Shown here in pieces: positions 45,613-64,000 of a DNA stretch of 64,000 bases. A program made the translations under genes and the position numbers. The stretch is taken from assembly GCA_040218735.1 (NCBI GenBank), contig JAVJQW010000050.1:96001-160000 (forward strand), written 5' to 3'. The notes under the pieces were generated by a model that searched no databases, was not told where the DNA came from, and saw nothing but the letters and a program-made list of their open reading frames with translations. Position 1 is the first letter of the stretch, and each line of letters starts with the position of its first letter. The stretch comes from Deltaproteobacteria bacterium. GTDB taxonomy: Bacteria > Myxococcota > Kuafuiibacteriia > Kuafuiibacteriales > Kuafuiibacteriaceae.

Positions 45613-46113
45613 GTGGCGTCTCCAGGAGGACACGATGCCAACACCGCGTGGAGGTTCGCCTGTCGGCACCTCACGCGCGCCGAGTTGGGCGGTTCGTTTT
45701 CGTGGCAGCCCGGTGGGCTCGCGGCGATAGAACGTCGGCTGCTCCGGCGGGTCCGAGGGCCCGACGCCGTCGCGGAGGTCGCGGAGCTGCTGAAGCTCGC
45801 GTCCGCGCTGCGGCGACGGCTCGGCTCCGTCGAAGCTGCGGATGCGCTCTCGGGGCTGCTGAAGCGAACGCCCGAAGCGGTCGCCATCGTCCGGGCGCAC
45901 TGGGGCACCGGTGCGCAACGTCGGGCCATCGCGCGGTTTCGTTCGCGGACCGGACAGGACGACCGTCGACGCGCGCCGTCGGTCGGACAGCGTCCCGCGC
46001 CCGGAGCCGTTCCGTTGGCCGCTCTCCTGGATCCCACCGAACGCGACCGTCGTCGCGCGAGGACACGGCGAAACACAGGAGTGAACGATGGCGGACGGCG
46101 TAAGCGAATCTAG
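45613..46113 (+). CDS. Hypothetical basic protein upstream of putative effector
   Basis: GGAGG RBS then GTG; overlaps the next gene. Confidence 0.5.
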   Translation: MASPGGHDANTAWRFACRHLTRAELGGSFSWQPGGLAAIERRLLRRVRGPDAVAEVAELLKLASALRRRLGSVEAADALSGLLKRTPEAVAIVRAHWGTGAQRRAIARFRSRTGQDDRRRAPSVGQRPAPGAVPLAALLDPTERDRRRARTRRNTGVNDGGRRKRI

Positions 46114-47527
46114 GGACACCAGCGGACCAAGCGGACCGAGCGGCGTCGATGCGGCGGGCGCAGCGGCCGACGTCGGCGGGCTGAGCGAGTCCGACACGCG
46201 GGAGATCGAGGCGGCGGTCGCCGCCGAAGGGCCGGGGCTCGAAGCGGGGCTCGTCGACGCCGGCGACGGGTACGAGGCCGACCTCGCCGAGCGCCCCGAT
46301 GTCGTGGCGGCCAACGCCGCGCCCGCCGCGACGGACATGGACGTGGACGTCGACGTCGACACGGACGTCGCCGTGACGGAGCCGCTCCCGGAGAACCGCG
46401 CGAAGGTCGAAGAGTTCCGCGACCGCTTCGAGGCGATCGACATCTTCGAGGGCTCGTTGTCCGCGCAGTCCGCCGCGGTCGACGCGGGCGATCCGCGCAG
46501 CGCGAGCGAACGTCGCGCGGACGTCTTGGACGAGCTCACCGACTGGGTGCACGGGATCGAGGATCCCGAGGAGCGCGACAACACCCTTCGGGCGATCGCG
46601 ATCGACGCCGGGCGCCAGGCGGGCAAGCTCGCCGAGGCGGATCCGTACCAGGCCTACGAAAAGCTCGACGCGCTCGGCGCGGGGATGCCGAAGGAGACCG
46701 GGGGGCTGCTCGCGTACGGCGCGCTGGAGACCTCGGACGGCGTCGACAAACTCCCGGCGCTCGCCCGCTCCGGCACCCCGGTCGGCGACGCATTGGTCGC
46801 GGAGGCGGACCGCCGCGCCGACGCTGCCCACGAAGCGATGCGCGCGGTGGTGCCGGGCTACGACGGGGTTGCGACGCTACTGGAGGGGGACGTCCTCGGC
46901 GCCGGGACGAGCCTGGCGATCGACGCCGCCGGCGGAGCGATCCTGAAGTCGGGGAAGCTCGCGGCCGCGGCGGTCGGCGCGGGCATCGTGGTCACGCCCG
47001 GCACCGCCGAGGCCGGCCCGTTCAGCAAGGTCGTCGACCTCGCGACGAACAAAAAGCTCCACATCGACGCCCACGAGCTCGTCTCGGAGCAAGCCCACAC
47101 GAGGTACCCGGTCGTCACGGCGCGGATCGTCGAGGACGGCCAGGAGGTCCGGTCGCTCACGCTCATGGACCCGCGCGCGAAACACAACATCGTCGACCCC
47201 AACCTGGATCCGAACCTCGACACGTTGTCGAAACAGATGAGCCGAAACAGACGCGTCGAGCCTCAGTTCAAGTCGGCGCGCGCCAACGGCCAGTTCACCG
47301 GCCGCTGGAACACCCCCGAGGGTCAGGCCGAGCTCGCGGAGATCATCATGAAGCGCCTGTCGGATGCAGAGCTGGATGCGATCGTCCCGGGCAAGGGCTC
47401 GAAGACGCTCAAGCTCCCCTTTCCGGTCGGGCTCACGCCGCAGGGGACCAACGTGCGGGTCGCGACGTCGATCGAGATCAAACGCAACGCCAACGAACCT
47501 GGCTTCCACCTCGTCCCGAGACCCTAG
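46088..47527 (+). CDS. Putative secreted toxin/effector (acidic disordered N-terminus, Gly/Ala-rich middle, basic C-terminal domain)
   Basis: No signal peptide; VPGYDG...GAILKSGK linker; C-terminal domain with AKH...GFHLVP. Confidence 0.5.
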   Translation: MADGVSESRDTSGPSGPSGVDAAGAAADVGGLSESDTREIEAAVAAEGPGLEAGLVDAGDGYEADLAERPDVVAANAAPAATDMDVDVDVDTDVAVTEPLPENRAKVEEFRDRFEAIDIFEGSLSAQSAAVDAGDPRSASERRADVLDELTDWVHGIEDPEERDNTLRAIAIDAGRQAGKLAEADPYQAYEKLDALGAGMPKETGGLLAYGALETSDGVDKLPALARSGTPVGDALVAEADRRADAAHEAMRAVVPGYDGVATLLEGDVLGAGTSLAIDAAGGAILKSGKLAAAAVGAGIVVTPGTAEAGPFSKVVDLATNKKLHIDAHELVSEQAHTRYPVVTARIVEDGQEVRSLTLMDPRAKHNIVDPNLDPNLDTLSKQMSRNRRVEPQFKSARANGQFTGRWNTPEGQAELAEIIMKRLSDAELDAIVPGKGSKTLKLPFPVGLTPQGTNVRVATSIEIKRNANEPGFHLVPRP

Positions 47528-47528
47528 G

Positions 47529-49706
47529 CTAGGCGGCGTCGGCCTCGAGCTGGGCGCGGCCCATCGGCTGGATGGTGAGGTCCATCGGGAGCTCGTCGAA
47601 GCTGAGCACCGAGACCTGCGGGAGGTCCGACTCGACCAGCTTGCGCACGAAGCGACGAATCTCGGCGTTCGTCAGGATGATGGGGCGCTTGCCCTGCGCG
47701 ACCATGGGCTGCAGCGCAGCGGCGATGCACATCGTGAACTGCCGGCAGAGCTGCGGGTCGAGCATGAGCACCTGGCCGTTCGAGTTCGTGACGATGGCTT
47801 CGGCGATCGTCTCTTCGATGACCGGGTCGAGGAGCAGCGCGGGGAGCTTGGTGTCCGTGCCGCAGTGTTTGTACGCGAGCTGCTCGCCGAGCGCCGCGCG
47901 CACCTTCTCCGTGAGGAACAGCGGGTCGCCGTCACGCACGCCGAACTCGCCGAGGGCTTCGACGATCGTCTTCAGGTTGCGGATGCACACACCCTCGTCC
48001 ACCAGGCGGCGGAGCACGCCGACGAGCTGCTGCACCGTCGCGACCTTCGGGATGGTCTCCTTCACGAGCGCCGGGTAGGCCTTCTCGAGGCGCTCGACCA
48101 ACTCGCTGACCTCCTGCACGCCGATGAACTCCTTCGCCTTCTTGCGGAGCACCGAAGCGGCGTAGAGGGAGACGGCGCCGGATGCGTCCCACGTCGTGAT
48201 GCCGGCGGCCTCGACGACCTCGCGGTCCTCTTCCTTGATCTGCGCGATCTTCACCTTGCTGACCGGGTGCTGGATGGCCTTCGCCTCGACGCCGAGGCGC
48301 GCGAGGTTCTCGGGGCTCGTCGTCGCGAGGAGCGTGTTCGGCTCGATGGGCTGGCTGAGCGTGGGGACATCGTTGATGCGGACGATCATCTGCTGCGGCG
48401 GCATCGTCTTGATGTGCGGACGAACGCGGACGCCGGGGAAGCGCACGCCGGTCTCGAGGTACAGCGCGTCGCGCAGCTGCGGGATGTACTGCGTCACGAG
48501 CAGCGCGTCGTCGTCCTCGTCCGGGTTCTCGAAGCCGAGCGCCTTCGACAGGCTCGCGCCGAGGTCGATCGTGATCGGGACGACCGAGGGGGTGAGGCGG
48601 TCCGAGAGCGTCTTCTGGTCCTTCGCGGCCTTGACCTTCTTGTCGAGGCGCTCCTTGAACGCGGCCTGCTTCGCGAGCGTCGCGGCGCCGGGGCCCGCCT
48701 TCGCGAGGGCCTTCTTCACGAACATCGGGAGGAAGGCACGCGAGGCGCCGATGGTGAGCGCGCTGATGGCGCAGATGAAGAACGGGATGCCCGGGAGGCC
48801 GGGGACGAGGCCGAGGATGAGCATCAGCACGCCGCCGATGTTCAGGACGGACGCGTTCTCGAAGAGCTCGTCCTTCAGCGAGAAGCCGAGGTTCTTGTCC
48901 TTGTCCTTCGCCTCGACGCGCGTGACCAGGATGCCCGCGGCGAGCGTGATGAGGAGCGCCGGGATCTGGGAGACGAGGCCGTCACCGATGGTGAGGATGC
49001 AGTAGACCTCGATGGCCTCGGAGGCGGCCATGTCGTTGCGGATGACGCCGATGGCGATACCGGCGACGAGGTTGAGCGCGGTGATGATCAGGCCGGCGAT
49101 GGAGTCGCCCTTCACGAACTTCATCGCGCCGTCCATGTTGCCGAACATCTGCGACGTGCGGCCGAGCTCGTCGCGCTTCTCCTGCGCTTCCTGCTCGGTG
49201 TACGCGCCGGAGCGGAGCGACGCGTCGATGGACATCTGCTTGCCGGGCATCGCGTCGAGGGTGAAGCGCGCGCCGACCTCGGCGACGCGCTCGGCGCCCT
49301 TACCGACGACCATGAACTGCACGATCGTGATGACGAGGAAGATGACGATGCCGACGATGATGTCGCCCTGGAGCACGAAGCCGCCGAACGACTTCACGAC
49401 CTGACCGGCGTCGGCCTGCGAGAGGATGCCGCGGGTCGTCGACACGTTGAGGCCGAGGCGGAACAGCGTGGTGACGAGCAGGAGGGTCGGGAACGTCGAC
49501 ACCTCGAGCGCGTTCTTCGCGAAGATCGCGACGAGGAGGATCATCAGCGCCGCGGCGATGTTCACGGCGATGAGCGAGTCGAGGATGAACGTCGGGAGCG
49601 GGATGACGATCATCGAGACGATGCAGGCGACGCAGACGGCGAGGACGACGTCGGGGCGGCGACCGATGGACGAGAGGGGGAGCGCGGCGAGCGGGTTCGA
49701 CTTCAT
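47529..49706 (-). CDS. sctV: Type III secretion export gate SctV (LcrD/FlhA family, injectisome type)
   Basis: FPTLLLVTTLFRLGLNVSTTR, GAERVAEVGARFTLDAMPGKQMSID, MDGAMKFVKGD, LTIGDGLVSQIPAL, VLSFDEL. Confidence 0.93.
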   Translation of the reverse strand: MKSNPLAALPLSSIGRRPDVVLAVCVACIVSMIVIPLPTFILDSLIAVNIAAALMILLVAIFAKNALEVSTFPTLLLVTTLFRLGLNVSTTRGILSQADAGQVVKSFGGFVLQGDIIVGIVIFLVITIVQFMVVGKGAERVAEVGARFTLDAMPGKQMSIDASLRSGAYTEQEAQEKRDELGRTSQMFGNMDGAMKFVKGDSIAGLIITALNLVAGIAIGVIRNDMAASEAIEVYCILTIGDGLVSQIPALLITLAAGILVTRVEAKDKDKNLGFSLKDELFENASVLNIGGVLMLILGLVPGLPGIPFFICAISALTIGASRAFLPMFVKKALAKAGPGAATLAKQAAFKERLDKKVKAAKDQKTLSDRLTPSVVPITIDLGASLSKALGFENPDEDDDALLVTQYIPQLRDALYLETGVRFPGVRVRPHIKTMPPQQMIVRINDVPTLSQPIEPNTLLATTSPENLARLGVEAKAIQHPVSKVKIAQIKEEDREVVEAAGITTWDASGAVSLYAASVLRKKAKEFIGVQEVSELVERLEKAYPALVKETIPKVATVQQLVGVLRRLVDEGVCIRNLKTIVEALGEFGVRDGDPLFLTEKVRAALGEQLAYKHCGTDTKLPALLLDPVIEETIAEAIVTNSNGQVLMLDPQLCRQFTMCIAAALQPMVAQGKRPIILTNAEIRRFVRKLVESDLPQVSVLSFDELPMDLTIQPMGRAQLEADAA

Positions 49707-49723
49707 GGCTCTCTGTGGACCTT

Positions 49724-50449
49724 TCAGGAGCGGGTGGTACGGGCGGCCATCGCGGGACGACGCTTCGTCGTCTTGCGGATGTGGTTGAAGATCGCGGTGG
49801 CCTTGCGCTCGAGCGCTTCGTCACCGGCGGCGCGGGCCTTGGCGGCGCCACGCTGGAGCAGCTGCAGGGCGCGGTCGTGACGGCCGGCTTCGATCTCGAG
49901 CTCGGCGCGGTTCACGTCCGGGCGCGCGTCCGACGGGTCGAGCTTCGACGCCTGCTGGTACCAACGGTACGCCTCCTGCGGCTCGCCGAGGCGGTCGTGC
50001 GTCAGGCCGAGCGCGAGGGCGAAGTACGCCTCGTTCGGCTCGATGGCGACGAGCCCCTCGAAGAGCGAGAGCGCGAGGTCGAGGCCGCCGTTGAAGAGGT
50101 AGTTGTGGCCGATCTCGGCGATCGCGTAGAGGTCTTCGCGACGGTAGCCGCGCTGCTCGGCGAGGGTCGCGTTCGGGCGAACCGCGACGGCGCCGCCGAC
50201 GTGCGTCATCGCCTTGGCGTTCTTGAGCGTGTTGAAGAACGCCGTCTTGTGGGGCTGGTAGTCCGAGATGACCTCGGGCGCGACGGCGACGTAGGCCTTG
50301 GAGACCTGCTCGGCGGTCGAGCGCGCGCGGCGAACGCGGGACGGGGTGGCCGGGCGGCCGCCGGGGATCACGGCGAGCGCGCGGGGCTCGCTCTTCGGCG
50401 AAGGCTGGCTGGGCGTCGGGCGGGAGCGGGGACGGCGTTGGCGAGTCAC
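49724..50449 (-). CDS. T3SS TPR chaperone (SctY- or SycD/LcrH-like)
   Basis: LYAIAEIGHNY...LFEGLVAIEP...YFALALG TPRs; directly upstream of sctV. Confidence 0.7.
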   Translation of the reverse strand: MTRQRRPRSRPTPSQPSPKSEPRALAVIPGGRPATPSRVRRARSTAEQVSKAYVAVAPEVISDYQPHKTAFFNTLKNAKAMTHVGGAVAVRPNATLAEQRGYRREDLYAIAEIGHNYLFNGGLDLALSLFEGLVAIEPNEAYFALALGLTHDRLGEPQEAYRWYQQASKLDPSDARPDVNRAELEIEAGRHDRALQLLQRGAAKARAAGDEALERKATAIFNHIRKTTKRRPAMAARTTRS

Positions 50450-50480
50450 GATTCTGGACCTCTCGTTCTTCGACCGGGGT

Positions 50481-50909
50481 TTAGTAGTTGGAGACCATCA
50501 TGGCGCGGCCGCGGATGTTGCCGACGACCTGGTCGAGCGCGGACAGCACCATGTGCATCCGCTTCTCCTTGGCGATGGCGTCGCGCGTCGCGACGGCCGG
50601 GCCGAGGTTCGTGGAGACGACGCGGCCGACCGCGGCGCGCATCGACGGGCCGTCGTGGTCGGTGACCTTCGCGAGGCGGAGGTGGTCGCCGGAGGTCAGC
50701 GAGCCCTGGAACTTCTCGACCGACTGCTCGAGGAAACCCGCGGCCTCGGCGGGCGCCACGGTGTCGACGTCGAGGCGGAGCGCTTCGATCTCGGCGATGT
50801 CGAGGGAGGCGTCGGCGTAGCCGCGGACCTCGGTCTGCTCGACGTCGAGGGAGACGTTCCGGATGAAGTTGGCGTCGAAGCCGTTGTTCAGGGTGGCGAC
50901 CGCAGACAT
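50481..50909 (-). CDS. Small T3SS-associated protein, SctX-like by position
   Basis: 142 aa, helical C-terminus; order X-TPR-sctV as in yscX-yscY-yscV. Call rests on synteny only. Confidence 0.45.
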   Translation of the reverse strand: MSAVATLNNGFDANFIRNVSLDVEQTEVRGYADASLDIAEIEALRLDVDTVAPAEAAGFLEQSVEKFQGSLTSGDHLRLAKVTDHDGPSMRAAVGRVVSTNLGPAVATRDAIAKEKRMHMVLSALDQVVGNIRGRAMMVSNY

Positions 50910-51099
50910 GCCCGAGGTTAGAGCAAGGGGTGTGCCGGGCTCGAAACGCAGGATTGTGGCGGTCGGAGCGGGCGGAGGAGGTGGAACAGTCGCGCGGGGT
51001 GCAACAACGGCAAGCGCCGCGATTGCGGAAACTGCAACCAGGCCGTTATCGGCCAGCAAGCTGGCCTGCGGCCCTTCGCTCACCTTCGGTTCGCTGCGT

Positions 51100-51152
51100 G
51101 GGCCCCCGAGGGGGGCCCTTTGCTGGGGAGGCACCGCCCAAGGAGTGGGCGG
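51100..51152 (-). terminator. Tandem GC-rich stem-loops downstream of the translocator-like gene
   Basis: GGGCCCCC-GAG-GGGGGCCC (51100-51118) and CCGCCCA-AGGAG-TGGGCGG (51134-51152); no clear U-tract. Confidence 0.45.
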
Positions 51153-51193
51153 GCGGGGGGAGAAGGGGCGCGAAGGCCCCCGGGGGGGGGCGG

Positions 51194-52198
51194 TTACGCC
51201 GTGCCCGACTTGTGCTTGTCCTGCTCGCCGGTGAGGCCCTGGGTGAGGATGTCGTCGATGGCGTTCTGGTGCTGGACGGCGAGGCTGTGGGCCTCGTCAC
51301 CGATCGCCTCGGTGTCGCCTTGGCTCTCGCGAGCCTTCGAACCGACCTCGCGGTGGTCCTCTGCGGCGCCGTCGAGGCCGATGCCGATGTTGCCGACGAA
51401 CTGCTGGAACGCGTCCTTCCACTTCTCGTCGAAGTGCTCGCCGAGCTTCTCGGCCTCCGTCTTGCGGTTGGCCCAGATGAAGTTCGCGACGTTCTCCTGC
51501 GACAGGCCGCTCTTGCGCTCCGCGACCGCCGACTCGGCCTCCTCTCGGGTGAAGCCCTGCGTCATGAGCTCGTTGACCGTACGGCGGTCCGCCTCGGCCT
51601 CGGAGAGCCCCTCCCCGATGAATCCCTCGCGGATCCCGCTGACGCGGTCTCGGCCGATCGAGAACAGCGATTCGGCCTCGTCCTCGGAGAAGTCCATGCC
51701 CTGGAGGTCCTCGATCGTTGCTTCGCGGGCCTCGGCCGGCGTCTTGCCGTCGGCGAGGTGCCCCTCGTACATGCGGTTGATCGAGTCGGAGTCGGACAGG
51801 ACCTCGATCTGGCGGTCGTTGAACCGCTCCCCGACGTTCCGGCCAGTGTCCCCGAGCTCCACGTCACGCAGCGCGGAGTCGTCGCCCCGCTGCGCGTCGC
51901 GGACGCCCTCTTGCAGCTGAGGCATCGCATCCGCGCGCTGCCCCTCTTCCTTGATGGTGGTGCCCATGTCGGCCCCGGCGCGCACCACGCTGACGGCCGA
52001 GTTCGCGACCTCGATCCAGCCCTTGGCGTCCGCGAGGCTGTTGGCCTGCTTCTGATGCGCGGCCTCGACCTCGATGGCGGCCTGCTCGGCCCGGTGCGAC
52101 GCTGCGCGCACCAGGTCGCTGGTCTTCTTGCTGTTGATCCCGTGCTCCAGCATCAGCTGGGCGATCTGGGCACCCATGGTGCCGCGAGAGATGGTCAT
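51194..52198 (-). CDS. Putative T3SS translocator-like/secreted helical protein
   Basis: Coiled coils, amphipathic WIEVANSAVSVV, C-terminal QHQNAIDDIL; strong AGGAG RBS; no signal peptide. Confidence 0.5.
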   Translation of the reverse strand: MTISRGTMGAQIAQLMLEHGINSKKTSDLVRAASHRAEQAAIEVEAAHQKQANSLADAKGWIEVANSAVSVVRAGADMGTTIKEEGQRADAMPQLQEGVRDAQRGDDSALRDVELGDTGRNVGERFNDRQIEVLSDSDSINRMYEGHLADGKTPAEAREATIEDLQGMDFSEDEAESLFSIGRDRVSGIREGFIGEGLSEAEADRRTVNELMTQGFTREEAESAVAERKSGLSQENVANFIWANRKTEAEKLGEHFDEKWKDAFQQFVGNIGIGLDGAAEDHREVGSKARESQGDTEAIGDEAHSLAVQHQNAIDDILTQGLTGEQDKHKSGTA

Positions 52199-52273
52199 CG
52201 GGTAGCTCCTCGAATTTCCTTCGTGTCGAGAGGAGCGCCGCCCGTCCTACGACAGGCGGCGCGTCAGGGGGCT

Positions 52274-52807
52274 CTAGAACCGGGCTCCGGTGGAGTCGAT
52301 GTCCTCGAGCAGCTCCTGGTACTTGTCGATCATCGCATCGAGGTCGTCGCCGGCCTCCTTCGACTCGTCCTTGGCGTCGTCGGCCTTCTCCTGCTCACGC
52401 TCGGCCTGCAGCTCCATCTGCGTGGCCTGCTCTTCCTTGGCCGCCGCCTGGTTCTCGAGCCCCTTGGCGATCATGGTGCCGATGAGGATGAGGATCGCGG
52501 CGACCACCGCGAGCGCCGCCGCGATGATCGGGCCGGCCGGCGGAGGCACGGTCGCAGCCACGATGGCCGCCGCCACCGACACGGCCGACGCGGCCGCCTG
52601 GAACGACGCGCGGACGTCTGCGGCCTCACCGCGGAGCGCCTGGGCCTCCGTGCGCAGGCCGGCCGCGTCCATCTTGTTGTCCTCGTACTTGCCGCGAGCC
52701 ACCTTGGACTCGTCCTTCTTCATCTCGGCCCACTCTTTTTTCTCCATCTGGAGAACCGCAATCATGTCCTGCAGTTGGCCGCTGAAGCCCAATCCGTTGA
52801 TGCTCAT
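52274..52807 (-). CDS. Putative hydrophobic translocator (mini SctE/SctB-like)
   Basis: Hydrophobic hairpin AASAVSVAAAIVAATVPPPAGPIIAAALAVVAAILILIG flanked by coiled coils; no signal peptide. Confidence 0.6.
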   Translation of the reverse strand: MSINGLGFSGQLQDMIAVLQMEKKEWAEMKKDESKVARGKYEDNKMDAAGLRTEAQALRGEAADVRASFQAAASAVSVAAAIVAATVPPPAGPIIAAALAVVAAILILIGTMIAKGLENQAAAKEEQATQMELQAEREQEKADDAKDESKEAGDDLDAMIDKYQELLEDIDSTGARF

Positions 52808-52846
52808 CTCGTCTCTCCTCGTCGGTCGTGTGGTGGCTCGGGGGGC

Positions 52847-53293
52847 CTAGATGCCCGTGTACCCGGTGCGGTTGATCTTCTGTTGAATGCTGCTGGTCGC
52901 GTCGACCTGTTCGCCCGCCTCTTCGAGCGCCTCGCGGGCGGACTCGAACTCCTCGAACGCACGGTCGGTGCGGATGTCGTTGCGCTCGATCTCCATCTCG
53001 AGGTCCCGCGCGCGGTTCTCGTCGCCGTTGTTGGCCCAGCCGCCGATGGCCTCGCCGATCGCGGTGCCGATGAGGAAGCCGCCGAAGATGCTCCCGAAGA
53101 GGGCGCCCATGCGCTTCGTCTCGGAGGCAGCGTGCTCCTTCTCGATCTTCTCGAGCCGGTTCGTGTAGCCCGCCTCGACCTCGGCCTCGTGGTTGTCGAG
53201 GGCGTCTTCCATCGCCTCGCGCGCACCTTCCTGCTTGGCGAAGTTCGCCTCCATGCGAATCGCGCTCAGGTTGCTCACTCCGTTCAGTCCCAT
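52847..53293 (-). CDS. Putative translocator-like protein with glycine-zipper segment
   Basis: GALFGSIFGGFLIGTAIGEAIGG between coiled coils. Confidence 0.55.
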   Translation of the reverse strand: MGLNGVSNLSAIRMEANFAKQEGAREAMEDALDNHEAEVEAGYTNRLEKIEKEHAASETKRMGALFGSIFGGFLIGTAIGEAIGGWANNGDENRARDLEMEIERNDIRTDRAFEEFESAREALEEAGEQVDATSSIQQKINRTGYTGI

Positions 53294-53350
53294 CTTCGTT
53301 CTCCTCTTTCGGGCCTGCGTTTGCGGCCAAAGTTCGTTGCGTCAGACATG

Positions 53351-53596: not shown

Positions 53597-53652
53597 ATAC
53601 GACTCAGACATCAACAACGCGCCGGCAACGGCCACCCAGTAGGAGAAAGAAA

Positions 53653-56203: not shown

Positions 56204-56213
56204 GGAGACCACC

Positions 56214-56984
56214 ATGGCGATCGAACAAACCCAGAGCCAGCTCTCGACGGCCAGCGCGATCCAGGCGGCGATCTTCGCCGCGAAGGACGGCGACATCATC
56301 CACGTCGCCCCCGGCCGCATCCAAGGGCGCCTCGTCATCGACCGCCCCCTCACGCTGCGCGGCTCCGGCCCGGACAGCACGGTGATCGACGGCCGCGGCC
56401 GCGGAACGACGATCGCCGTCGAGGCGTTCAACGGTCAGGTCCGCATCGAGGAGATGTCGATCGTCGGCGGGCGCGCGCAGAGCGGCGGCGCCATCGCGAT
56501 CGAGAACGGCTGCGAAGTCCACGTCGTCGGCTGCCTCATCGAGAAGAACACCGCGAAGACCGGGCGCGGCGGCGCGATCGCCATCGACCGCGGCCAGCTC
56601 TTCGTCACCGAATGCACGATCGTCGACAACCAGGCGTTCGCCGGCGGCGCGATCTTCGCGGGCGGCGACGCCAAGGTGGAGATCGCCGCGACGATCGTCG
56701 CGCACAACTTCGCGGTGCGCGGCGGCGCGCTCGCGATCACCGACGGCGCCGAAGTCGACGTGTACACCTGTCGCTTCGAAGGCAACTCCGCGGAGCTCGA
56801 GGGACACCACGTCTACACCTACGGCGCGTACCGAACGCGCCCGCTCGTGCTGCTCTCCAACGCCGTCCTCGACACGGCCCCCGGGGGCCTCCCGATCTCG
56901 AACCACTATCGATTCGCCGCGTCGGTGGCGATCGACAACTCGGCCGTCGAACGTGAAGTCGCGGCGCCGCGCGTGGTGGGCTGA
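56214..56984 (+). CDS. Right-handed beta-helix protein with GGAI repeats
   Basis: GDIIHVAPG, TVIDG, repeated N.A..GGAI/GGAL. Confidence 0.75.
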   Translation: MAIEQTQSQLSTASAIQAAIFAAKDGDIIHVAPGRIQGRLVIDRPLTLRGSGPDSTVIDGRGRGTTIAVEAFNGQVRIEEMSIVGGRAQSGGAIAIENGCEVHVVGCLIEKNTAKTGRGGAIAIDRGQLFVTECTIVDNQAFAGGAIFAGGDAKVEIAATIVAHNFAVRGGALAITDGAEVDVYTCRFEGNSAELEGHHVYTYGAYRTRPLVLLSNAVLDTAPGGLPISNHYRFAASVAIDNSAVEREVAAPRVVG

Positions 56985-58231
56985 TGGTCAGCGTGCCGCG
57001 CGCGCCGGCGAATTGGTCTCCGACCAACGTCGGCTACATCGTCGTCGACGAGCTCCCGCAGGCCCTCGTCGGCGATCTCGCGGACGCCGGCGTATCGGAG
57101 GAGGACCTCCGCGAGCTGGCCGGACGTGACGGTGTCATCCGCGGCGCGGACGAGCTCGAGAATCTATTCAGTCGAATCGACGAACCGTCGCGCGCGCTCG
57201 TCGCCGTCAACGGCCGTTCGCTGTTCGACGCCCTCCGCGCGCAGGTCGACCGAAACCGCCAGCGCGCCGACGACCGCGGTGGCCGTCGCTTCCTCTTCGA
57301 CCCCGTGCTGGTCGACGTCCTCGAAGGCGGCCCCTCGCTCGGGCCGCGCTCCAACGCGGAGTCCGTCTATCGCGTCGAACAGGCCCTCTCGGATCTCGGG
57401 CTCATGGCGTCGGCCGACGTCGACGGCGACTACGACGCCAAGACCATGGAGGCCGTCGAGCGCTTCCAGCTCGAAGCCGACCTCCCGATCACCAGCCGCG
57501 TCGACGCCCCCACGCTCGGTGCGCTGATCGCCCTCGCCCCGCCGCCCGGCTCGCGCCTCGTTCGCCTCCCCGAGTACGCGCGCATGGCGCGCGGCGACAA
57601 CGTGCAGGTCACCGTCGCCCTCGGCGCAGGCGACCGCCCCTCGACGCGGATGCGCGCCGAAGCGGAGCTCGTCTCGGGGCTCCTCGAGCGCGGCTACTCG
57701 CGGGTGAGCGGCGACGACGTCGCCACGCTCGAAGCCCTCGGCCTCCCGGGCCGCGATCCCCACGTCGACATCTGGACCGCCCCCGGCACCACGCTGTTCG
57801 TGGTGATGCCCGACGACTCGGCGCCGGAGCGCATCGCGACGTCGCGCGCGGCGGAGGCGTCGGACGCCGTCCTGTTCGCGGGGAAGCGCTTCACGATCGG
57901 GGAGTCGCACCGGTCACGCACCGGCCTGCGCGCACGCTCGCCGGCGCGCCCGAGCACCAACGCACCCGACTACCAGCTCGTCTGTGTCAGCGGCTGCGGC
58001 GCCGACGCCGCGGCGGAGGACCGCCTCCTCGCCCGGACCTCCGTCGACACCGATCTGTTCAGCTCCGCCGGAGCGACCTCGGAGCGCGCGCGCGCCCGGG
58101 AGGTGCTCGGGTTCCTCGACGTCATCGCGCGCCAGGGGAGCACCGACGATCTCGCGGCCGTCCTCGGTCGCACGGCCGCAACGGAGCGCGGTTTCCTCTC
58201 GAACCGATCGAACGTGACGGAGGCCCTGTAA
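56984..58231 (+). CDS. Peptidoglycan-binding domain protein
   Basis: VEQALSDLG...VDGDYDAKTMEAVERFQ...L.ITSRVDAPT (PG_binding_1). Confidence 0.7.
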   Translation: MVSVPRAPANWSPTNVGYIVVDELPQALVGDLADAGVSEEDLRELAGRDGVIRGADELENLFSRIDEPSRALVAVNGRSLFDALRAQVDRNRQRADDRGGRRFLFDPVLVDVLEGGPSLGPRSNAESVYRVEQALSDLGLMASADVDGDYDAKTMEAVERFQLEADLPITSRVDAPTLGALIALAPPPGSRLVRLPEYARMARGDNVQVTVALGAGDRPSTRMRAEAELVSGLLERGYSRVSGDDVATLEALGLPGRDPHVDIWTAPGTTLFVVMPDDSAPERIATSRAAEASDAVLFAGKRFTIGESHRSRTGLRARSPARPSTNAPDYQLVCVSGCGADAAAEDRLLARTSVDTDLFSSAGATSERARAREVLGFLDVIARQGSTDDLAAVLGRTAATERGFLSNRSNVTEAL

Positions 58232-58821
58232 TGGTCGCCATCGCGCCCGACGTTCGGTCCGCCCTCGCCGTGCTCCAGGACGACCGCGCCTCGGAGGCGG
58301 AGCGCATCCGCGCCGTCACGATCGTGTCGGACTTCGGGGGCTCCGGGATCGTCTTCCCCCTCGCCGTCGAGTACGCGGCGGCGGACGGGTCCCTCAAGAC
58401 CACCCTCGCCTACGCGCTGGGGCGCCTGGACGCGACCTCGGTGCTCGCGTCGGAGCTCGCCTACGGCGACGCCCGCACCCGCGCGCGCGCCGCGGAGCTG
58501 TTGTCGCTGTTCAACGAAGACGCCGCGACCCGGGCGCTCGTCGGCGCGCTGCGGGACCCGGACACCGACGTGCGCATCAACGCTGCGTACGCGCTGGGGG
58601 ACCACCAGGACCCATCGACGCTCACCGCCCTCACCGAGGGCATGAGGTCCGACACCGTCCCCGCGGTGCGCAGCGCATGTGCGCTCGCCCTCGCCGCCCT
58701 CCCCGGCCCCGGCGCGCGCGCCGCGCTGGAGACCGCGGCCCAGCACGAAGACGTGGTCTCCGTCATCATCCTGATCGAGCGCGCCATCCAGCGTCGCATC
58801 GACCGCGGCGAAGCCGAGTAG
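58231..58821 (+). CDS. HEAT-repeat protein
   Basis: LRDPDTDVRINAAYALG, VRSACALAL. Confidence 0.75.
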   Translation: MVAIAPDVRSALAVLQDDRASEAERIRAVTIVSDFGGSGIVFPLAVEYAAADGSLKTTLAYALGRLDATSVLASELAYGDARTRARAAELLSLFNEDAATRALVGALRDPDTDVRINAAYALGDHQDPSTLTALTEGMRSDTVPAVRSACALALAALPGPGARAALETAAQHEDVVSVIILIERAIQRRIDRGEAE

Positions 58822-59159
58822 CGGCGCCCAACCGAGGCCTAACCGCGCACGGTCACCACCCACGCGCCGTCGGCGGTGTGCGCCGTCCCCTCGGCGAGGT
58901 CGCGATGGTCCACACACCCCCGATGCACCGGCCGCCCCACGTGACTGCGCACCACCTCCAGGCGGCGGGTCCGCATCCACAGCATCGCGGCGCGCTGGGG
59001 GAGCGCGATTCGGCTGGCGAGGCCCCGGGCCGAGACGTGGCGTTGCTGTGCGGCGCTCACCCTATCGTCTACGACGCCAAACCCACCGTTCTGACAACAA
59101 AAGCGACGTCGAGGGCGTTGAGCCACACCCGCCGCGATCTGCTAGGATGGCGCGCGTAG

Positions 59160-61151
59160 ATGGCGGGCTCCGCGGCGAACGTAGCCCCCGGCGAGGTGAT
59201 CGGGGCCTACGAGCTCGAACGCCTCCTCGGCGCCGGCTCCACGAGTAAGGTCTTCCTCGGTCGCCACAAGCTGCTGGGACGCCAGGCCGCGATCAAGGTC
59301 CTCGCGCAAGAGCTCGTCTCGAACCAGGACGTCGTCCACCGCCTCCTCACCGAGGCCCGCGTCGTCAACGACATCCGCCACCCGAACATCATCGACATCA
59401 TCGACTTCGTCGTCATCGAGAAGCCGCGGCGCGTCGCGCTGGTGATGGAGGTGATCGAAGGGCCGAGTCTGATGACGCTGCGGGGGTTCAAGTTCAGCCA
59501 CGAGCAGGCGCTCGGCATCGTGCTGCAGCTCGTCGACGCGGTCGGCGGCGCCCACGCCGCGGGGGTGATCCACCGCGACATCAAACCCGACAACCTCCTC
59601 CTCCAGGACGACCCGCGCGAGAGCGCGAAGGTGCCCACGCTCAAGGTCGTGGACTTCGGCATCGCGAAGCTCGCCGGCAAGAGCGGCCGCACCGCGACCG
59701 GCATGATGCTCGGGACCCCGGCGTACATGGCGCCCGAGCAGGTCGCGGGGCGCCCGCCACCGAGCACCGCGACGGACGTCTTCGCGATCGGGGAGGTGCT
59801 CTACGAAGTCCTCGCGGGCGAGCGCGCGTACCCGTCGAAGGCGATCCACGAGACGGTCCGCGCCAAGATCCGCGGCGAGCTCCCGGACATGAAGCTGCCC
59901 GACGGCACGCCCAACGCGGACCGGCTCATGCAGCTCATCGTGAAGTGTTTGGAGCGGCGCCCCGAGGACCGCCCCTCGATCGACGACGTGAAAGAGACCC
60001 TCGTCGATCTGTTCCCGTCGAACTGGCGCCCCAGCGCGTCGCTCGCGGAGCGCCTCATCGCCAACACCCTCGGCACCGGCCCGCACCCCGTCGCGCAGAG
60101 CGCCGACGCACCGACCACGCAGCTCGAGCCCGTGAGCCCCGAGCTCCCGACGACCGCGCCCCGCGAGAAGAAGATGTCGATCCTCGCGCTCCCCAACGTG
60201 GACGCGACGATGGATCCCGCCGCGCTCGGCGAGGGCGCGAACCCGACGGACATGCTGACGTCGCCGCGCGCCGACGAGATCACCGATCGCAGCGCCGACC
60301 AGGATCTGGAGTACGCGTCGACGCAGCTCGCGTTCGAAGACGACAGCGGCCTGGTGAACGCGCCAACCCTCCCCCCCGTAGCGAGGACGGAGCTCGCGTC
60401 GGCGGCGGGCCTCGAGAGCAGCGGCTCGCACGACAGCCTGAAGATCGACACCTCCGACACCGCCGTGACGATGCTCGGCGCTGACGCGTTGCTGTCGCCG
60501 GCGGGCGTGCAGGAGGCGCCCGAGACGAACCCGCAGATGCCGGCCCCGACGGCCGAGCTTCGCGGGCGTTCGCGCCTCACGCAGGAGCTGGAGCTCGCGG
60601 TCGATCAGGTCACGAGTCCACCCGACGACGAGTTCGGGGAGCCCACGCGCCCGGCCGACGACCCGGAGCTCGCGGAGATGGCCTCCGACTCCGTCATCGA
60701 GTCCGGCCACGCGGTCGACGATCCGGCGAAGCGCCACTCCCCACCGTCCGTCCTCCTCGAACCGGCGGCCCGCGAACAACGCGCACCACCGCCGCGCAAG
60801 AGCCGGGTGTGGACGCTGATCGTCGCGCTGTGGATCGTCGCGTGTGTCCTCCTCGCGGTGATCCTGCTGATGCCCAAGAAGCAGCGCGCGCCGACCGCGC
60901 CCACGCAGGGCATCGACAAGCCGACGACGCCCATCGTGGTTGGCCCGATCACCATCAACAGCGATCCGCAGGGGGCCACCGTCACCGACGTCGCGTCCTC
61001 GCGCGCGCTCGGGGAGACGCCGCTGGAGCTCACGGAGAAGCAGCGCCGCGGCGTTCGCCTCGTTCGTATCGAGAAGAGCGGCTACAAACGCGCGACGGTG
61101 GACCTGTCGTCCACGAGCGGGAACGTCTGGATGGAGCTCGACGCCGAGTGA
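59160..61151 (+). CDS. Hanks-type Ser/Thr kinase with TM and C-terminal PEGA domain
   Basis: LGAG, AIK, HRDIKPDN, DFG, YMAPE; TM segment; INSDPQGATV. Confidence 0.92.
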   Translation: MAGSAANVAPGEVIGAYELERLLGAGSTSKVFLGRHKLLGRQAAIKVLAQELVSNQDVVHRLLTEARVVNDIRHPNIIDIIDFVVIEKPRRVALVMEVIEGPSLMTLRGFKFSHEQALGIVLQLVDAVGGAHAAGVIHRDIKPDNLLLQDDPRESAKVPTLKVVDFGIAKLAGKSGRTATGMMLGTPAYMAPEQVAGRPPPSTATDVFAIGEVLYEVLAGERAYPSKAIHETVRAKIRGELPDMKLPDGTPNADRLMQLIVKCLERRPEDRPSIDDVKETLVDLFPSNWRPSASLAERLIANTLGTGPHPVAQSADAPTTQLEPVSPELPTTAPREKKMSILALPNVDATMDPAALGEGANPTDMLTSPRADEITDRSADQDLEYASTQLAFEDDSGLVNAPTLPPVARTELASAAGLESSGSHDSLKIDTSDTAVTMLGADALLSPAGVQEAPETNPQMPAPTAELRGRSRLTQELELAVDQVTSPPDDEFGEPTRPADDPELAEMASDSVIESGHAVDDPAKRHSPPSVLLEPAAREQRAPPPRKSRVWTLIVALWIVACVLLAVILLMPKKQRAPTAPTQGIDKPTTPIVVGPITINSDPQGATVTDVASSRALGETPLELTEKQRRGVRLVRIEKSGYKRATVDLSSTSGNVWMELDAE

Positions 61152-61158
61152 GTCGACC

Positions 61159-62193
61159 TCAAGCGTCGGTCGGGACGAAGACGCGATAGTTCGAAGCGCC
61201 GCGCAGAGAGGTGATCTGGCTCTGGACGTGGTCGCTCGCCTCGCGGCCATCACCGAGCGCGACCGAGATGTGCCCGTGCGGGCTGGCCGACGTCTGGCCC
61301 CAGACCACCACCGCGCCGGGCGGGAGCTGCGTGAGGTTCTCGGGCGAGACCTCGACCTCCTGGAACCGTCCGCTCGCCGCGAGCTGGTCCGCCGCCTCGT
61401 AGGCCGAGCCTCCGGTGAGCTGCACACCCGTCGACTGCGCGACCGCCTGCTTCACGCCGCGATAACACCAACCGGTGGTGCCCATCCCGTTCGCGACCTG
61501 CTCCGCGGTGTGCGCAAGCGCTTCGCCCGCGCTCGATCCGGGCGGGGGCGGACCGACCGGCGCGGGACCACTCGGCGCCGGCGCGGAGCGGTTCGTGCCG
61601 GTGTGCTGCCCACCACCGCCGTAGCTGTTCGTCCCCCCCGGCCCCCAAGAGCCCTGCGGGGCGACGCTCGCGTGCGGCTGCGAGGCCACCGGCCCCGGGT
61701 TGTTCTGGTTCTGACGGTACTGGTCGAGCAGCGTGAAGAGGCTGATGAGGTCCTCGGCGGAGAGCCCGCTGAAGTCCCCCGTCGCGAGCGCGTGCTGGAT
61801 GTCCGAGTCGGGCCGCCCCTCGAGCGGCGTCCCGTCCGCGTACAGCTCGGCGAAGAGGTCCTTGATCGCCGACTCCAGCTCCTCGCGCGACATGTCTTCG
61901 ACGCCGTCGATGCCGCTGAGCGGCCCGAGGTCGCGGCCGGACTCGGGGAGGCCCATGAGCTGCGACCACATCAGGCTGGGATCGATCTCGGCGCCCGCGT
62001 GCCCGGCGGTAAACTCCGCCAACTCCGGCGAAAGGCCCTCGAGGATCGAGAACTGGTCACCCTGCGCCAGGCCGGGGATCGGCATCCCAGGGGCCGCGGG
62101 CGTCTGCTGCCCAACGAACGGGAGGTTCAGCCACGGCTGCAGGAGAGGGTTGTCTTCGGGCGAACGAACGAACCACGACATCTCGACGTTCAT
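61159..62193 (-). CDS. Protein with C-terminal CHAP/NlpC-P60-like cysteine amidase domain
   Basis: GWCYRGV...LPPGAVVVW...HGHISVALGDGREASD; low-complexity N-terminus; no signal peptide. Confidence 0.7.
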   Translation of the reverse strand: MNVEMSWFVRSPEDNPLLQPWLNLPFVGQQTPAAPGMPIPGLAQGDQFSILEGLSPELAEFTAGHAGAEIDPSLMWSQLMGLPESGRDLGPLSGIDGVEDMSREELESAIKDLFAELYADGTPLEGRPDSDIQHALATGDFSGLSAEDLISLFTLLDQYRQNQNNPGPVASQPHASVAPQGSWGPGGTNSYGGGGQHTGTNRSAPAPSGPAPVGPPPPGSSAGEALAHTAEQVANGMGTTGWCYRGVKQAVAQSTGVQLTGGSAYEAADQLAASGRFQEVEVSPENLTQLPPGAVVVWGQTSASPHGHISVALGDGREASDHVQSQITSLRGASNYRVFVPTDA

Positions 62194-62251
62194 TGTCGTC
62201 AGCCGCTTCGCAAACGTCCCTTACCGCCGGGCTGTAATCGTTCGCGACGCG

Positions 62252-63832
62252 CTACTTCTTCCCGCCGCCGCCTCGCGCGCGCGGGATACCGAACGCGTCG
62301 AGCCGGTTCAGGAAGGTCCGCATCGGCATCTCCAAGGCCGCAGCGGCGTCGCGCTGCGTCGGGTAACGCTCCAGCGCTTCCAGGATGCGGCGCTTCTCGA
62401 GCGCGGCGATCTCGTCCTTGAGCGAGAGCCGCTCGCCCTCCTGAAGGGGCGGGGCCGCGGTGGGGTTCGTCTTGGCGTCGGCGATCTGCGCGCCGAAGAA
62501 GTCGACCTCCAGCGTCTCACCGGTGCACAGGAGCACCGCGCGCTCGATCGCGTTCTTCAGCTCGCGCACGTTACCCGGCCAGCGGTGACCGAGCAGCTTC
62601 GACTTCGCGTTGTCGGTGAGCTGCGGCGTCGTCGCCCGACCGCGCGCGGCCTCGGCGATGAAACGCTCCGCGAGCGGCACGATATCCGCGGCGCGATCGC
62701 GGAGCGGCGGGACGTCGATCGTGATCTGATTGAGCCGGAAGTAGAGGTCCTTGCGGAACGTCCCCTTCTTCACGTTGGCGGCGAGGTCCTGGTTCGACGA
62801 CGCGATCACCCGAACGTCGAGCGCCGCGCCGTAGGCGTCGTCGAGCAGGTACCCGAGCGACAGCTGCGCGCGTGCCGAAAGGCCAGCGAGCTCGTCGAGG
62901 TGCACGGTGCCGCCCTTCGCGCGCGCGAGGAAGTTCGTGCTCGCTTCTTCGACGAACGCGTCGGACAGATCGACGCAGCTCGTCCGGACGAAGGGTCCGT
63001 GCGCCCGGTCCGACTTGTCGTGGATGATCTGCGCGACGAGGTCCTTGCCGACGCCCGTCTCGCCGAGGATCAGCACCGGGGTCGTGCTCGCCGCGACGCG
63101 ATCGACCAGCTCGACGACACGACGCATCGCCGGGTCGAGCGTGATGAGCTCCTTCTTCTTGTCGGGCGTGGTGTGCGAGGGCCGCGTGGTGCGGGTCTCC
63201 GCGATCTGGAGGAGCTTGTCGCGGCGCCCCTCGTCGGTGTGCGCGACGCCGATCAGCACCTCGGCGCCGAGCCCGTACAGGTGGTCGACGATCGGTCCGA
63301 GCACGTCGCGCGCGTGGCGCTCGGTCGCGTTGGGCACGAACACACCGACCTGCTGCGCGCCGAGGGGGGCGATCACTAGCTCGGGCCGGGCGTGCTCCGT
63401 GACCGTGTCGGCGAGGTTCGAGCCCGCCCCGGTGACGCGCAGCCGTGCGACGGCGCCGTCGCGCTCTTCGATGCAGCGCTCGAGGTAGCGGCGCGTGACG
63501 ACGTGGGGCGCCGCGGCCCGCGCCTCGTCCTCGACGGTGGCGAAGGAGACCTCGACGGAGCCGACGCGAATGCGATCGCCGTCTTCGAGATCGACCGTCT
63601 TGCCGACCGGGAGCGCCGACTCCTGGTCGCCGAGGAGGCGCGCGGTGTCGGCGTCGTTCACGCGGATGCCGACGCCGTGGTCCAGGTAGATCTCCAGGTG
63701 GTTGTCCGCGACGCCGGCCTCGGCGATCACGATGTCGTTTGCGATCGCGCGCCCCAGCGTGAGCGTCTCGAGCGGCGGCATCGCCATCCGCAGGGACGTC
63801 GCGCGCCCCCGCACCATCAGATACCGCGTCAC
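62252..63832 (-). CDS. FHA-domain bEBP-like AAA+ transcriptional regulator lacking GAFTGA
   Basis: FHA (LGR...DIVI...NH), GETGVGKD, LDE, FRKDLYFRLN, WPGNVREL, C-terminal Fis-like HTH. Confidence 0.85.
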   Translation of the reverse strand: MTRYLMVRGRATSLRMAMPPLETLTLGRAIANDIVIAEAGVADNHLEIYLDHGVGIRVNDADTARLLGDQESALPVGKTVDLEDGDRIRVGSVEVSFATVEDEARAAAPHVVTRRYLERCIEERDGAVARLRVTGAGSNLADTVTEHARPELVIAPLGAQQVGVFVPNATERHARDVLGPIVDHLYGLGAEVLIGVAHTDEGRRDKLLQIAETRTTRPSHTTPDKKKELITLDPAMRRVVELVDRVAASTTPVLILGETGVGKDLVAQIIHDKSDRAHGPFVRTSCVDLSDAFVEEASTNFLARAKGGTVHLDELAGLSARAQLSLGYLLDDAYGAALDVRVIASSNQDLAANVKKGTFRKDLYFRLNQITIDVPPLRDRAADIVPLAERFIAEAARGRATTPQLTDNAKSKLLGHRWPGNVRELKNAIERAVLLCTGETLEVDFFGAQIADAKTNPTAAPPLQEGERLSLKDEIAALEKRRILEALERYPTQRDAAAALEMPMRTFLNRLDAFGIPRARGGGGKK

Positions 63833-64000
63833 GATCGCACCCACTCCGGGAGGTGTTCGACGCGCACCGAGTCGAGGCGACGGCTCGCGATCTCGTGCAC
63901 CAGGCGGTTGAGGCCACGCAGGTTCTCCGGCCAGTCCTCGAGGACGAGCCGCTCCGCGGCCTCCGCGTGGATGCGCGGCGGGTGGGTGTCGATGTCGCGC
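63829..64000 (-). CDS. C-terminus of a bEBP-like AAA+ protein (lid region), partial
   Basis: Manual translation RIHAEAAERLVLEDWPENLRGLNRLVHEIASRRLDSVRVEHLPEWVRS*; its stop overlaps the next GTG. Confidence 0.6.
   Translation of the reverse strand, partial: RDIDTHPPRIHAEAAERLVLEDWPENLRGLNRLVHEIASRRLDSVRVEHLPEWVRS

Follow-up and report, generated by a model that had tools for sequence, protein, structure and literature searches.

The locus described here raises the question of what the export-gate gene of a secretion system of type III (T3SS) does in a place where no other core part of the secretion apparatus is encoded. The stretch of DNA that was analysed (the window) comprises 64,000 nucleotides, positions 96001-160000 of contig C70 in genome G000, an assembly of 11.6 Mb in 70 contigs that is 96.5% complete. 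Its last 20 kb carry an sctV gene together with genes for a tetratricopeptide repeat (TPR) chaperone, small helical proteins, putative cargo proteins, a kinase and sigma-54 activators. We consider this region to be, on balance, a satellite T3SS module, that is, an alternative and separately regulated export gate with its own substrates. The core injectisome genes are nine in number, SctC, J, N, Q, R, S, T, U and V (Abby and Rocha 2012). A complete set was not found, with N, Q, R, S, T, U and V located on contig C23 of this genome and SctV alone in the window. The initial annotation of this DNA, made from the letters only, had remarked that the window lacks the other basal-body genes, and this was borne out by whole-genome searches for SctU, SctR, SctN, SctQ, YscJ/FliF and secretins, none of which gave a match within the window range of C70. 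The sole match of the core-gene searches on that contig was to the ATPase family at 69456-70781, which is below the cut-off and outside the window range.

The window SctV is of the injectisome type, as had been claimed. It reached the curated cut-off of the NCBIfam SctV/hrcV family TIGR01399 (698.0 bits, cut-off 692.25), scored 689.7 bits with PF00771 FHIPEP (cut-off 29.1) and fell below the cut-off of the FlhA family TIGR01398 (608.4 bits vs 772.1). It also contains GAMKFVKGD, the motif on which the claim had been based. When 58 FHIPEP proteins were compared, GAMKF[VI]KGD was present in the four named injectisome references and in all but five of the 40 unnamed non-flagellar Myxococcota proteins, the exceptions having R in place of the second K (G012_C5_3976k and G003_C21), L in place of M (G036_C1) or, in two more, I for V. 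The flagellar proteins of the same set carry GA[SNT]KF[VI][RK]GD or GSNKFIRGD, and the named FlhA of Rossellomorea has K, not R. The motif distinction between SctV and FlhA therefore holds for most, but not all, of these 58 proteins.

Maximum likelihood trees (LG+G4, with Shimodaira-Hasegawa-like approximate likelihood ratio test (SH-aLRT) support) were built for 58 and then for 70 FHIPEP proteins, using a phylum sample of 41 Myxococcota genomes and, as references, the SctV proteins of Yersinia, Shigella, Ralstonia and Sinorhizobium and the FlhA of Rossellomorea; no Myxococcus xanthus sequence is among the rows. Instead of grouping with FlhA, the window SctV falls into a non-flagellar clade (44 of 58 and 56 of 70 rows, SH-aLRT 100) that also holds the four injectisome references, so the assignment stands; the FlhA on contig C59 of the same genome is in the flagellar clade, from which the window SctV is excluded. 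Three groups can be recognised within the non-flagellar clade. The first is a lineage-restricted clade with the window, C38 and C41 copies (20 of 58 rows at SH-aLRT 100; 29 of 70 rows at SH-aLRT 97), the second a short-branched core clade that extends across the phylum sample and includes the C23 SctV, and the third is formed by the four classical injectisome references together (support 99). The trees give no resolution of the branching order of these groups, and the C9 SctV stands alone on a long branch outside the lineage-restricted clade. Among the 41 genomes sampled, the window's clade occurs only in one class-level lineage, which in the genome collection amounts to one family (17 genomes of 90% completeness or more) and whose record titles read Myxococcota or "Deltaproteobacteria" metagenome-assembled genomes. 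In overall identity the window SctV is closest to C38 (56%) and C41 (51%), followed by C23 (46%), the SctV of Yersinia (40%), C9 (39%) and C59 (32%). A comparison of membrane- and cytoplasmic-domain identity among the SctV paralogues, tried as a test of the models below, did not discriminate between them since Yersinia LcrD shows an equal pattern.

The inventory of the genome shows that export gates are in excess. There are six full-length FHIPEP genes (C23, C59, C41, C70, C38 and C9) and two genes for SctU/FlhB (C23:318k and C59:394k); the two SctR/FliP genes and the two ATPases above the cut-off likewise all lie on C23 or C59, and matches to SctQ/FliN are confined to these two contigs. The one YscJ/FliF match is the flagellar FliF of C59, and neither of the two secretin open reading frames (ORFs; C21 and C59:261k) is near a T3SS locus. 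Other sct genes therefore do exist in this genome, and C23 holds its only non-flagellar export core (SctL/N/O/Q/R/S/T/U), with its own SctV about 3.6 kb downstream of SctU. This core is distributed over three sub-loci within 40 kb, the first with a kinase, a sigma-54 activator, SctL, SctN and SctO, the second with SctQ, FliO, SctR, SctS and SctT, and the third with SctU, a 151-residue protein, a TPR protein, a 407-residue protein, a second TPR protein and SctV. The extra SctV modules number four: that of the window and those of C38, C41 and C9. The C38 module contains SctV, a TPR gene, a needle-like protein, a PG_binding-like protein, a kinase (55% identical to that of the window) and an activator (56-58%), and at C9:326-340 kb (L015) the very divergent SctV is accompanied by a pair of TPR genes and by genes for a needle-like protein, a kinase and a sigma-54 activator, a similar logic in a different lineage. 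The modules thus outnumber the export cores on which they must depend, a situation more unusual than a split T3SS.

Since a flagellar-type cluster is present on C59, the satellites might serve the flagellar export apparatus, for example for non-flagellar cargo. We regard this as very unlikely. Identity between the window SctV and the C59 FlhA is no more than 32%, the clade of the window SctV nests among non-flagellar SctVs, and genome G003 has a member of this clade and no match to flagellar FlhA or FlhB; therefore, a flagellar core is not required. The cluster itself (C59:375-410 kb; L010 and L011) includes a 554-residue FliF, FliI, FliP, FlhB, FlhA, an FlhF-like gene and others, and FlhA-clade genes are found as well in several relatives and in other sampled members of the phylum.

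The neighbourhood of the window SctV is conserved. Around clade members in ten other genomes, 16 related loci were compared by profile searches of six-frame ORFs, and a TPR gene was found directly upstream of SctV in all 16, seven of which lie outside the query alignment. A member of the family of the 169-residue needle-like protein was present at 12 of the 16 loci, two of the 12 being in the alignment, to which some database representatives from the related genomes may also have contributed. The neighbours of the window SctV thus do co-occur with it in relatives. At one locus (L023, in G011) the gene order is nearly complete, with SctV, TPR, the 334-, 177- and 148-residue proteins, the divergent 169-, 148- and 154-residue proteins, the beta-helix protein, the kinase and two activators. 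When the six-frame translation of the window's own genome was searched with the 169-residue profile, five matches at E<=1e-3 were obtained, all beside the four extra SctVs and none elsewhere; they include the window 154-residue protein and a C41 ORF, the matches to the window 169-residue protein, C38 and C9 being there by construction. FHIPEP genes also exceed SctU/FlhB genes in five relatives (for example 6 vs 2 in G011 and 2 vs 1 in G003).

It is extremely unlikely that the extra SctV copies are decaying duplicates without function. The small neighbouring proteins do evolve fast (25-42% identity between orthologues), as such decay would predict. Against it, all 29 clade rows are open frames (713-952 residues from stop to stop) that keep KF[VI][KR]GD, and the TPR partner is retained at all 16 related loci. 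Furthermore, a strain from a sponge metagenome keeps the entire 19 kb on two contigs at about 99% identity, and the five of its indels that were listed fall between gene models, provided that the 217-residue ORF starts at its internal Met; frameshifts or stops were not seen in the copies.

The relatives with small genomes suggest how such a gate may be used. G017, G014, G005 and G013 have no core-clade SctV, and their only non-flagellar SctV belongs to the clade of the window. In G017, G014 and G005 this SctV and its TPR gene are found on another contig than an operon of SctL-N-Q-R-S-T-U that has no SctV; in G013 the contig ends soon after SctU and the arrangement cannot be read. In a small SctU tree, the SctUs of these small genomes group with the C23-type SctU of the family (SH-aLRT 92) and not with YscU or a phylum-level SctU. 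The simplest reading of these sequences is that a clade SctV can serve the export core of this family from a distance, that is, in trans.

The same arrangement bears on the proposal of the initial annotation that this is a split T3SS, in which the window SctV would be the single SctV of one system whose other parts are elsewhere in the genome. The split arrangement is real in G017, G014 and G005, and the C23 core is itself scattered over its sub-loci. In the present genome, however, the C23 core has its own SctV of the phylum-wide clade and three more extra modules exist on C38, C41 and C9, and because of this there is no vacancy for the window SctV to fill. We therefore judge a single split system to be quite unlikely here. 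A different possibility is that the satellite SctVs act without SctRSTU, either as a membrane ring that docks chaperone and substrate for regulation or storage or as a new minimal exporter. Core genes were absent beside all of the 20 clade loci examined, and the accompanying kinase and activator genes would also fit a signalling role. However, SctV is not known to export without SctRST, every member of the clade retains the FHIPEP motif and has the architecture of a full-length protein, and in the three relatives mentioned above the core, complete but for SctV, has no candidate gate other than the clade SctV. Independent action is thus unlikely, and we favour a satellite gate that would work with the C23 core.

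The window has a G+C content of about 70%, and its genes were called from third-position GC. From 44 kb to the window end the order is ABC1 kinase, 479-residue orphan, SctV, TPR protein, 217-residue ORF, small proteins, cargo genes, kinase, amidase-like protein and activators (Table 1). The TPR chaperone beside sctV and the small helical proteins in two divergent operons, both noted in the initial annotation, were recovered by the gene calls, and the small proteins have no Sec-type N-termini, as read from the sequences by eye.

Table 1. Features of the satellite module and its surroundings, in window coordinates
Feature	Position	Strand	Evidence or remark
ABC1 kinase	44171-45562	-	
479-residue orphan protein, convergent with sctV	46088-47527	+	Membership of the module uncertain
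SctV, 725 residues, export-gate subunit	47529-49706	-	PF00771, TIGR01399, trees
LcrH/SycD-like TPR chaperone, 241 residues	49724-50449	-	TIGR02552, hhalign
217-residue ORF	50481-51134	-	Gene call; real gene probably shorter (start near 50909)
Sigma-54 -24/-12-like site, 1 mismatch	50922-50937	-	Inside the 217-residue ORF
334-residue hydrophilic helical protein	51194-52198	-	Gene call
177-residue protein: coiled coil, hydrophobic two-helix hairpin, coiled coil	52274-52807	-	Gene call
148-residue helical protein, one Gly-rich hydrophobic segment	52847-53293	-	Heads the minus-strand operon
Sigma-54 -24/-12 site, exact consensus	53351-53366	-	58 nt upstream of the 148-residue gene
Sigma-54 -24/-12 site, 1 mismatch	53581-53596	+	57 nt upstream of the 169-residue gene
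169-residue needle/filament-like helical hairpin protein	53653-54162	+	Sub-threshold PF09392, AlphaFold2 model
148-residue coiled-coil protein	54209-54655	+	
154-residue helical protein	54737-55201	+	Distant paralogue of the 169-residue needle-like family
Calpain-like (Peptidase_C2) protein	55268-56203	+	PF00648 E 1.8e-17
Right-handed beta-helix protein, 256 residues	56214-56984	+	PF13229 E 1.5e-7
415-residue protein with PG_binding_1 domain	56984-58231	+	PF01471 E 5.5e-10
HEAT-repeat protein, 196 residues	58231-58821	+	PF13646 E 4.4e-27
Ser/Thr protein kinase, one transmembrane segment and PEGA domain	59160-61151	+	PF00069 E 1.7e-48
344-residue protein, C-terminal Tae3-like (NlpC/P60-type) amidase domain	61159-62193	-	CHAP-like
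FHA-domain sigma-54 enhancer-binding protein	62252-63844	-	PF00158, PF00498, HTH_50
Second FHA-sigma-54 activator	from about 63829, past the window edge		

Among the NCBIfam families the TPR protein matched LcrH_SycD best (TIGR02552; E 4.3e-19), with a score of 68.6 bits that falls short of the equivalog cut-off, 104.8. When its family was aligned by hhalign with Yersinia LcrH, a probability of 96.6% was obtained (E 5e-10 over 110 columns), against 13% with YscY and no alignment with YscG. These alignments make the homology of the TPR family with LcrH, the chaperone of the translocators, clear, and they show no closeness to YscY or YscG. An analogy of the 217-residue ORF, TPR protein and SctV with yscX-yscY-yscV was dropped since the match of the TPR family to YscY is much poorer than that to LcrH. 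In the satellite modules, the LcrH-like chaperones have an N-terminal extension of 60-100 residues that is rich in Pro and Arg and in which a stretch of Arg, loosely kept, precedes Pro-x-Pro; the 173-residue TPR protein of the C23 core has no such extension.

The initial annotation took the small proteins to be divergent filament and translocon subunits, a claim supported by weak profile matches for the filament and by layout and the LcrH-like chaperone for the translocon. The 169-residue protein may be called needle- or filament-like on account of weak profile matches, without being a member of the needle family PF09392, whose cut-off of 29.4 it does not reach (E 1.3e-3 and 19.3 bits by hmmscan; 21.7 bits in the genome search, where it was the sole PF09392 match in the whole genome). 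Of the 59 aligned members of its family, 21 match PF09392 at E<=0.1 (best 6.6e-6) and the next commonest Pfam family is matched by three; one member has a weak EspA match (E 0.003), and among ten short members that were scanned separately two had weak needle matches. A search of 1.84 billion representatives with the family profile returned 756 matches at E<=1e-3, many of them proteins of 80-130 residues matched over the C-terminal 60 residues only. Ten clusters of the needle-like family were looked up for names, and the two that are named are both called "hypothetical protein". The AlphaFold2 model (predicted local distance difference test score, pLDDT, 85.3) has two helices, 2-51 and 100-168, that are separated by an insert, and a conserved helix at the extreme C-terminus; the helical hairpin and C-terminal helix are thus present, but the fold is generic. 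A fold search with this model found no match in the PDB at E<=0.001, the top rows being flagellin cores, the V-ATPase stalk and IpaD, all generic helical hairpins, and among the PDB sequences hmmsearch with the family found nothing beyond weak matches to SipD (E 0.06-0.2). By hhalign, the family was not significantly similar to Yersinia YscF (probability 0.3%) nor to the rod protein. The 154-residue protein matches the 169-residue family profile at E 2.8e-10 in the six-frame genome search. An Atlas search had placed it with an EspA-named cluster (score 0.91), an assignment that was not confirmed, since no EspA match was found in six family members with Pfam or in a comparison with the PDB.

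The case for translocators comes from architecture together with the LcrH-like chaperone. The 177-residue protein has hydrophobic segments within residues 67-112 and weak matches to SLATT two-transmembrane families, and by architecture only this protein and the 148-residue protein of the minus strand would have a translocator-like layout; hhalign showed no translocator similarity of the 177-residue family (YopB 0.8%, YopD 0.1%). Orthologues of the 177-residue protein occur at L017, L019 and L023, and those of both 148-residue proteins at L017 and L023. No family match was obtained for the plus-strand 148-residue coiled-coil protein. The 334-residue protein has homologues at L017 and L023, a weak UBA match as its only domain match and no usable lead from the Atlas search (scores <=0.80). 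The 217-residue ORF, which has a homologue at L018 (40% identity over 156 residues), is probably over-called at its 5' end: metagenome contigs of near-identical sequence have single-base indels at 51055 and 51110, and a sigma-54-like site falls inside the ORF. Read from an internal Met near 50909, it starts in a way similar to the other small proteins. Asn-Gly-[Ile/Leu/Val/Phe] is found within the first 12 residues of three of the six small proteins and of the 217-residue ORF when read from that Met; this motif is only loosely kept in orthologues and might belong to a secretion signal or to the first helix.

The divergent operons are separated by an intergenic region of 360 bp that holds two sigma-54 sites, one directed towards each operon. 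With up to one mismatch allowed, three sites were observed in the window where 0.66 would be expected, a number reached in 2 of 100 shuffles. The third of these sites, at an unusual distance from the nearest start codon, may be a chance match. The genome as a whole has 170 such sites in its 11.6 Mb, and at this rate 5.0 would be expected in the 340 kb of satellite loci, which contain 26. Several of these 26 form pairs ahead of the orthologous divergent genes at L017, L019 and L023. Paralogues of the window kinase adjoin the satellite SctVs of C38 (55% identity), C9 and C41 and a partial FHIPEP gene on C16, and kinases are found in the related loci L021, L023, L027, L028 and L032. Paralogues of the activators accompany the modules of C38 and C9 and occur at L022, L023, L025, L028, L030 and L032; when the compared loci were clustered by BLAST, activators occurred in ten locus groups and kinases in nine. 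Since the module has two FHA-sigma-54 activators and a Ser/Thr kinase, a circuit from kinase to FHA activator to sigma-54 is the natural inference. At the C23 core locus (L033, 283-289 kb), too, the first genes are those for a Ser/Thr kinase and a sigma-54 activator, directly followed by SctL-SctN-SctO; however, no sigma-54 consensus site with up to one mismatch was found in C23 283-330 kb. In the metatranscriptome X20, 6% of the sampled words were found, in short contigs of depth 2-4 that fall on sctV, the region of the TPR gene and 217-residue ORF, the 148-residue gene, the promoter and start of the 169-residue gene, the beta-helix gene and the kinase gene.

We therefore propose that the module consists of an SctV paralogue, its cognate LcrH/SycD-like chaperone, a set of small helical proteins (two needle/filament-like hairpins and two with hydrophobic segments that might insert into membranes), variable cargo, and control by a kinase, FHA-sigma-54 activators and sigma-54 sites, and that its genes include neither SctRSTU nor an ATPase or a sorting platform. 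A signal received via the kinase and the FHA activators would lead to transcription of both operons. The satellite SctV would then assemble as a nonameric gate on the C23 core (SctRSTU with SctL/N/O/Q), where it would replace, or sit beside, the core's own SctV, and together with its chaperone would select its own substrates for export, presumably the small proteins. It is possible, and we suggest it tentatively, that one core is shared in this way by up to four or five interchangeable SctV gates, each with its own chaperone, needle-like filament proteins, membrane-inserting proteins, cargo and kinase/sigma-54 switch.

Several observations weigh against this proposal. Contact of the satellite SctV with the C23 core is hypothetical, and although the membrane domain of the window SctV is 57% identical to that of the C23 SctV, this is uninformative because Yersinia LcrD is nearly as close (54%). 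The SctU tree that points to action in trans has long branches and one phylum-level outgroup besides YscU. No SctJ, SctD or T3SS-linked secretin was recognised at the C23 core, and because of this the exit route of the needle-like protein is unexplained. The needle label consists of sub-threshold profile matches, with no significant match from the YscF alignment or the fold search, and the translocator label of architecture without similarity to YopB or YopD. The contigs from the RNA library X20 may be DNA carry-over. Finally, a second core could be missing from an assembly of this completeness and contig number, although the two-contig G011 (91% complete) is also without an extra core.

Among the closest known systems is the needle-less T3SS* of Myxococcus xanthus, the 'Myxo' group of Abby and Rocha (2012), which is described as being without homologues of the secretin, needle and translocon. 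It has been studied in predation (Thiery et al. 2022; Herrou et al. 2025) and is described as a single locus that has one SctV; a 2025 preprint reports FliO from non-flagellar systems of myxobacteria. Compared with the published description, the C23 core is similar in having the export apparatus, ATPase, stator, stalk, FliM/FliN-like SctQ and FliO, in belonging to the same phylum, and in having no linked secretin and no needle gene at the core. The difference lies in the extra SctV genes, which here lie apart, in modules that also encode an LcrH-like chaperone and needle-like proteins; the core fits the published description of the T3SS*, and the satellite modules add needle-like genes below the PF09392 cut-off. 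The Ysc system of Yersinia also has a non-flagellar SctV with a chaperone gene directly upstream (yscY upstream of lcrD), and the window TPR chaperone is homologous to LcrH of the lcrGVH-yopBD operon. Unlike in Yersinia, SctC, J, D, I, P and W were not recognised in the neighbourhood of any module, the chaperone is LcrH-like and not YscY-like, the small proteins have no detectable similarity to YscF, rod, YopB or YopD, and control is predicted from the sites to be by sigma-54 rather than by an AraC-type activator. The 169-residue protein resembles SctF and EspA in its long helical hairpin, conserved C-terminal helix and weak PF09392 matches, and differs from SctF in being about twice as long, in the insert at the tip of the hairpin and in having all matches below the cut-off.

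The diversity of T3SSs is usually described in terms of entire systems that are gained or lost together, with one SctV per SctU, whereas here SctV exceeds SctU. In the main texts of the literature (supplements excepted) no description was found of SctV-only modules or of an excess of SctV over SctU; a Xylophilus paper that mentions SctV paralogues reports SctU and SctV in equal numbers. What is described here is a set of lineage-specific modules, real and conserved, of SctV, LcrH-like chaperone and needle-like protein with predicted sigma-54 and kinase control. If our proposal is true, substrate choice could be reprogrammed at the export gate, a new principle for type III secretion, and the gate subunit rather than the entire apparatus would be the unit of diversification, with one machine re-tooled per target or condition. 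This would parallel the interchangeable tips reported for the Kil pilus of Myxococcus, and would mean that a lineage with a 'needle-less' myxobacterial T3SS can have needle-like substrates. The modules also bear on what that T3SS exports and how, since they offer candidate substrates and a Tae3-like lytic enzyme in a genome in which no T6SS (type VI secretion system) sheath gene was found.

Concerning cargo, the initial annotation pointed to peptidoglycan-directed proteins and hence to bacterial rather than eukaryotic targets. The first of these points is borne out for one gene, whose product has a Tae3-like amidase fold. In the 344-residue protein Cys243, His308 and Asp321 are invariant among 59 sequences, and with its AlphaFold2 model (pLDDT 81.7) the best Foldseek match of the C-terminal domain was to Tae3 of Ralstonia pickettii (4hz9_A; E 7.5e-5, TM-score 0.76 by target, root-mean-square deviation 2.8 A, 25% identity), followed by other NlpC/P60 amidases and Tse1/Tae1. 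The fold and the invariant Cys and His are shared with Tae3; the 220-residue N-terminal region ahead of the domain is not, nor is the setting, as the kinase and activator genes on either side leave no space for an immunity gene next to it, and the genome, at 96.5% completeness, gave no match to TssC/VipB (PF05943). Because no TssC was found, delivery of the amidase by a T6SS is unlikely. Among 120 homologues listed, 13 have the amidase domain fused to PG_binding_1. However, the amidase gene is not among the 16 related loci examined, and for that reason we only infer a bacterial target, to which the peptidoglycan enzyme and, by analogy, the precedent of prey lysis by M. xanthus are pointers. 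DNA near-identical to window positions 45000-64000 occurs in sponge, aquaculture and biofloc metagenomes from several studies, which hints at a marine or aquaculture habitat; because of these sources, bacterial prey and eukaryotic hosts are both plausible as targets.

In an alignment with calpain-1, the calpain-like protein has GDAW for GDCW, with Ala at the position of the catalytic Cys, and keeps the His and Asn regions; this may point to a pseudo-protease or to the use of a Cys nearby. A partial homologue occurs at L018. Homologues of the beta-helix protein are found at L018 (52% identity) and L023 (36%), and a paralogue of the PG_binding_1 protein occupies the equivalent position in the C38 module (29% identity over 375 residues). 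No family was assigned by Pfam or NCBIfam to the 479-residue protein, which has just two homologues among 5.8 billion clusters. A 366-residue ORF on C16 (73173-74273; L007/L016) corresponds to the C-terminal cytoplasmic half of FHIPEP only (160 bits over profile positions 329-655). Flagellar FlhA is its nearest match, with 35% identity, a Ser/Thr kinase gene adjoins it, and a similar fragment is present in G001 (C545), a genome of the same genus.

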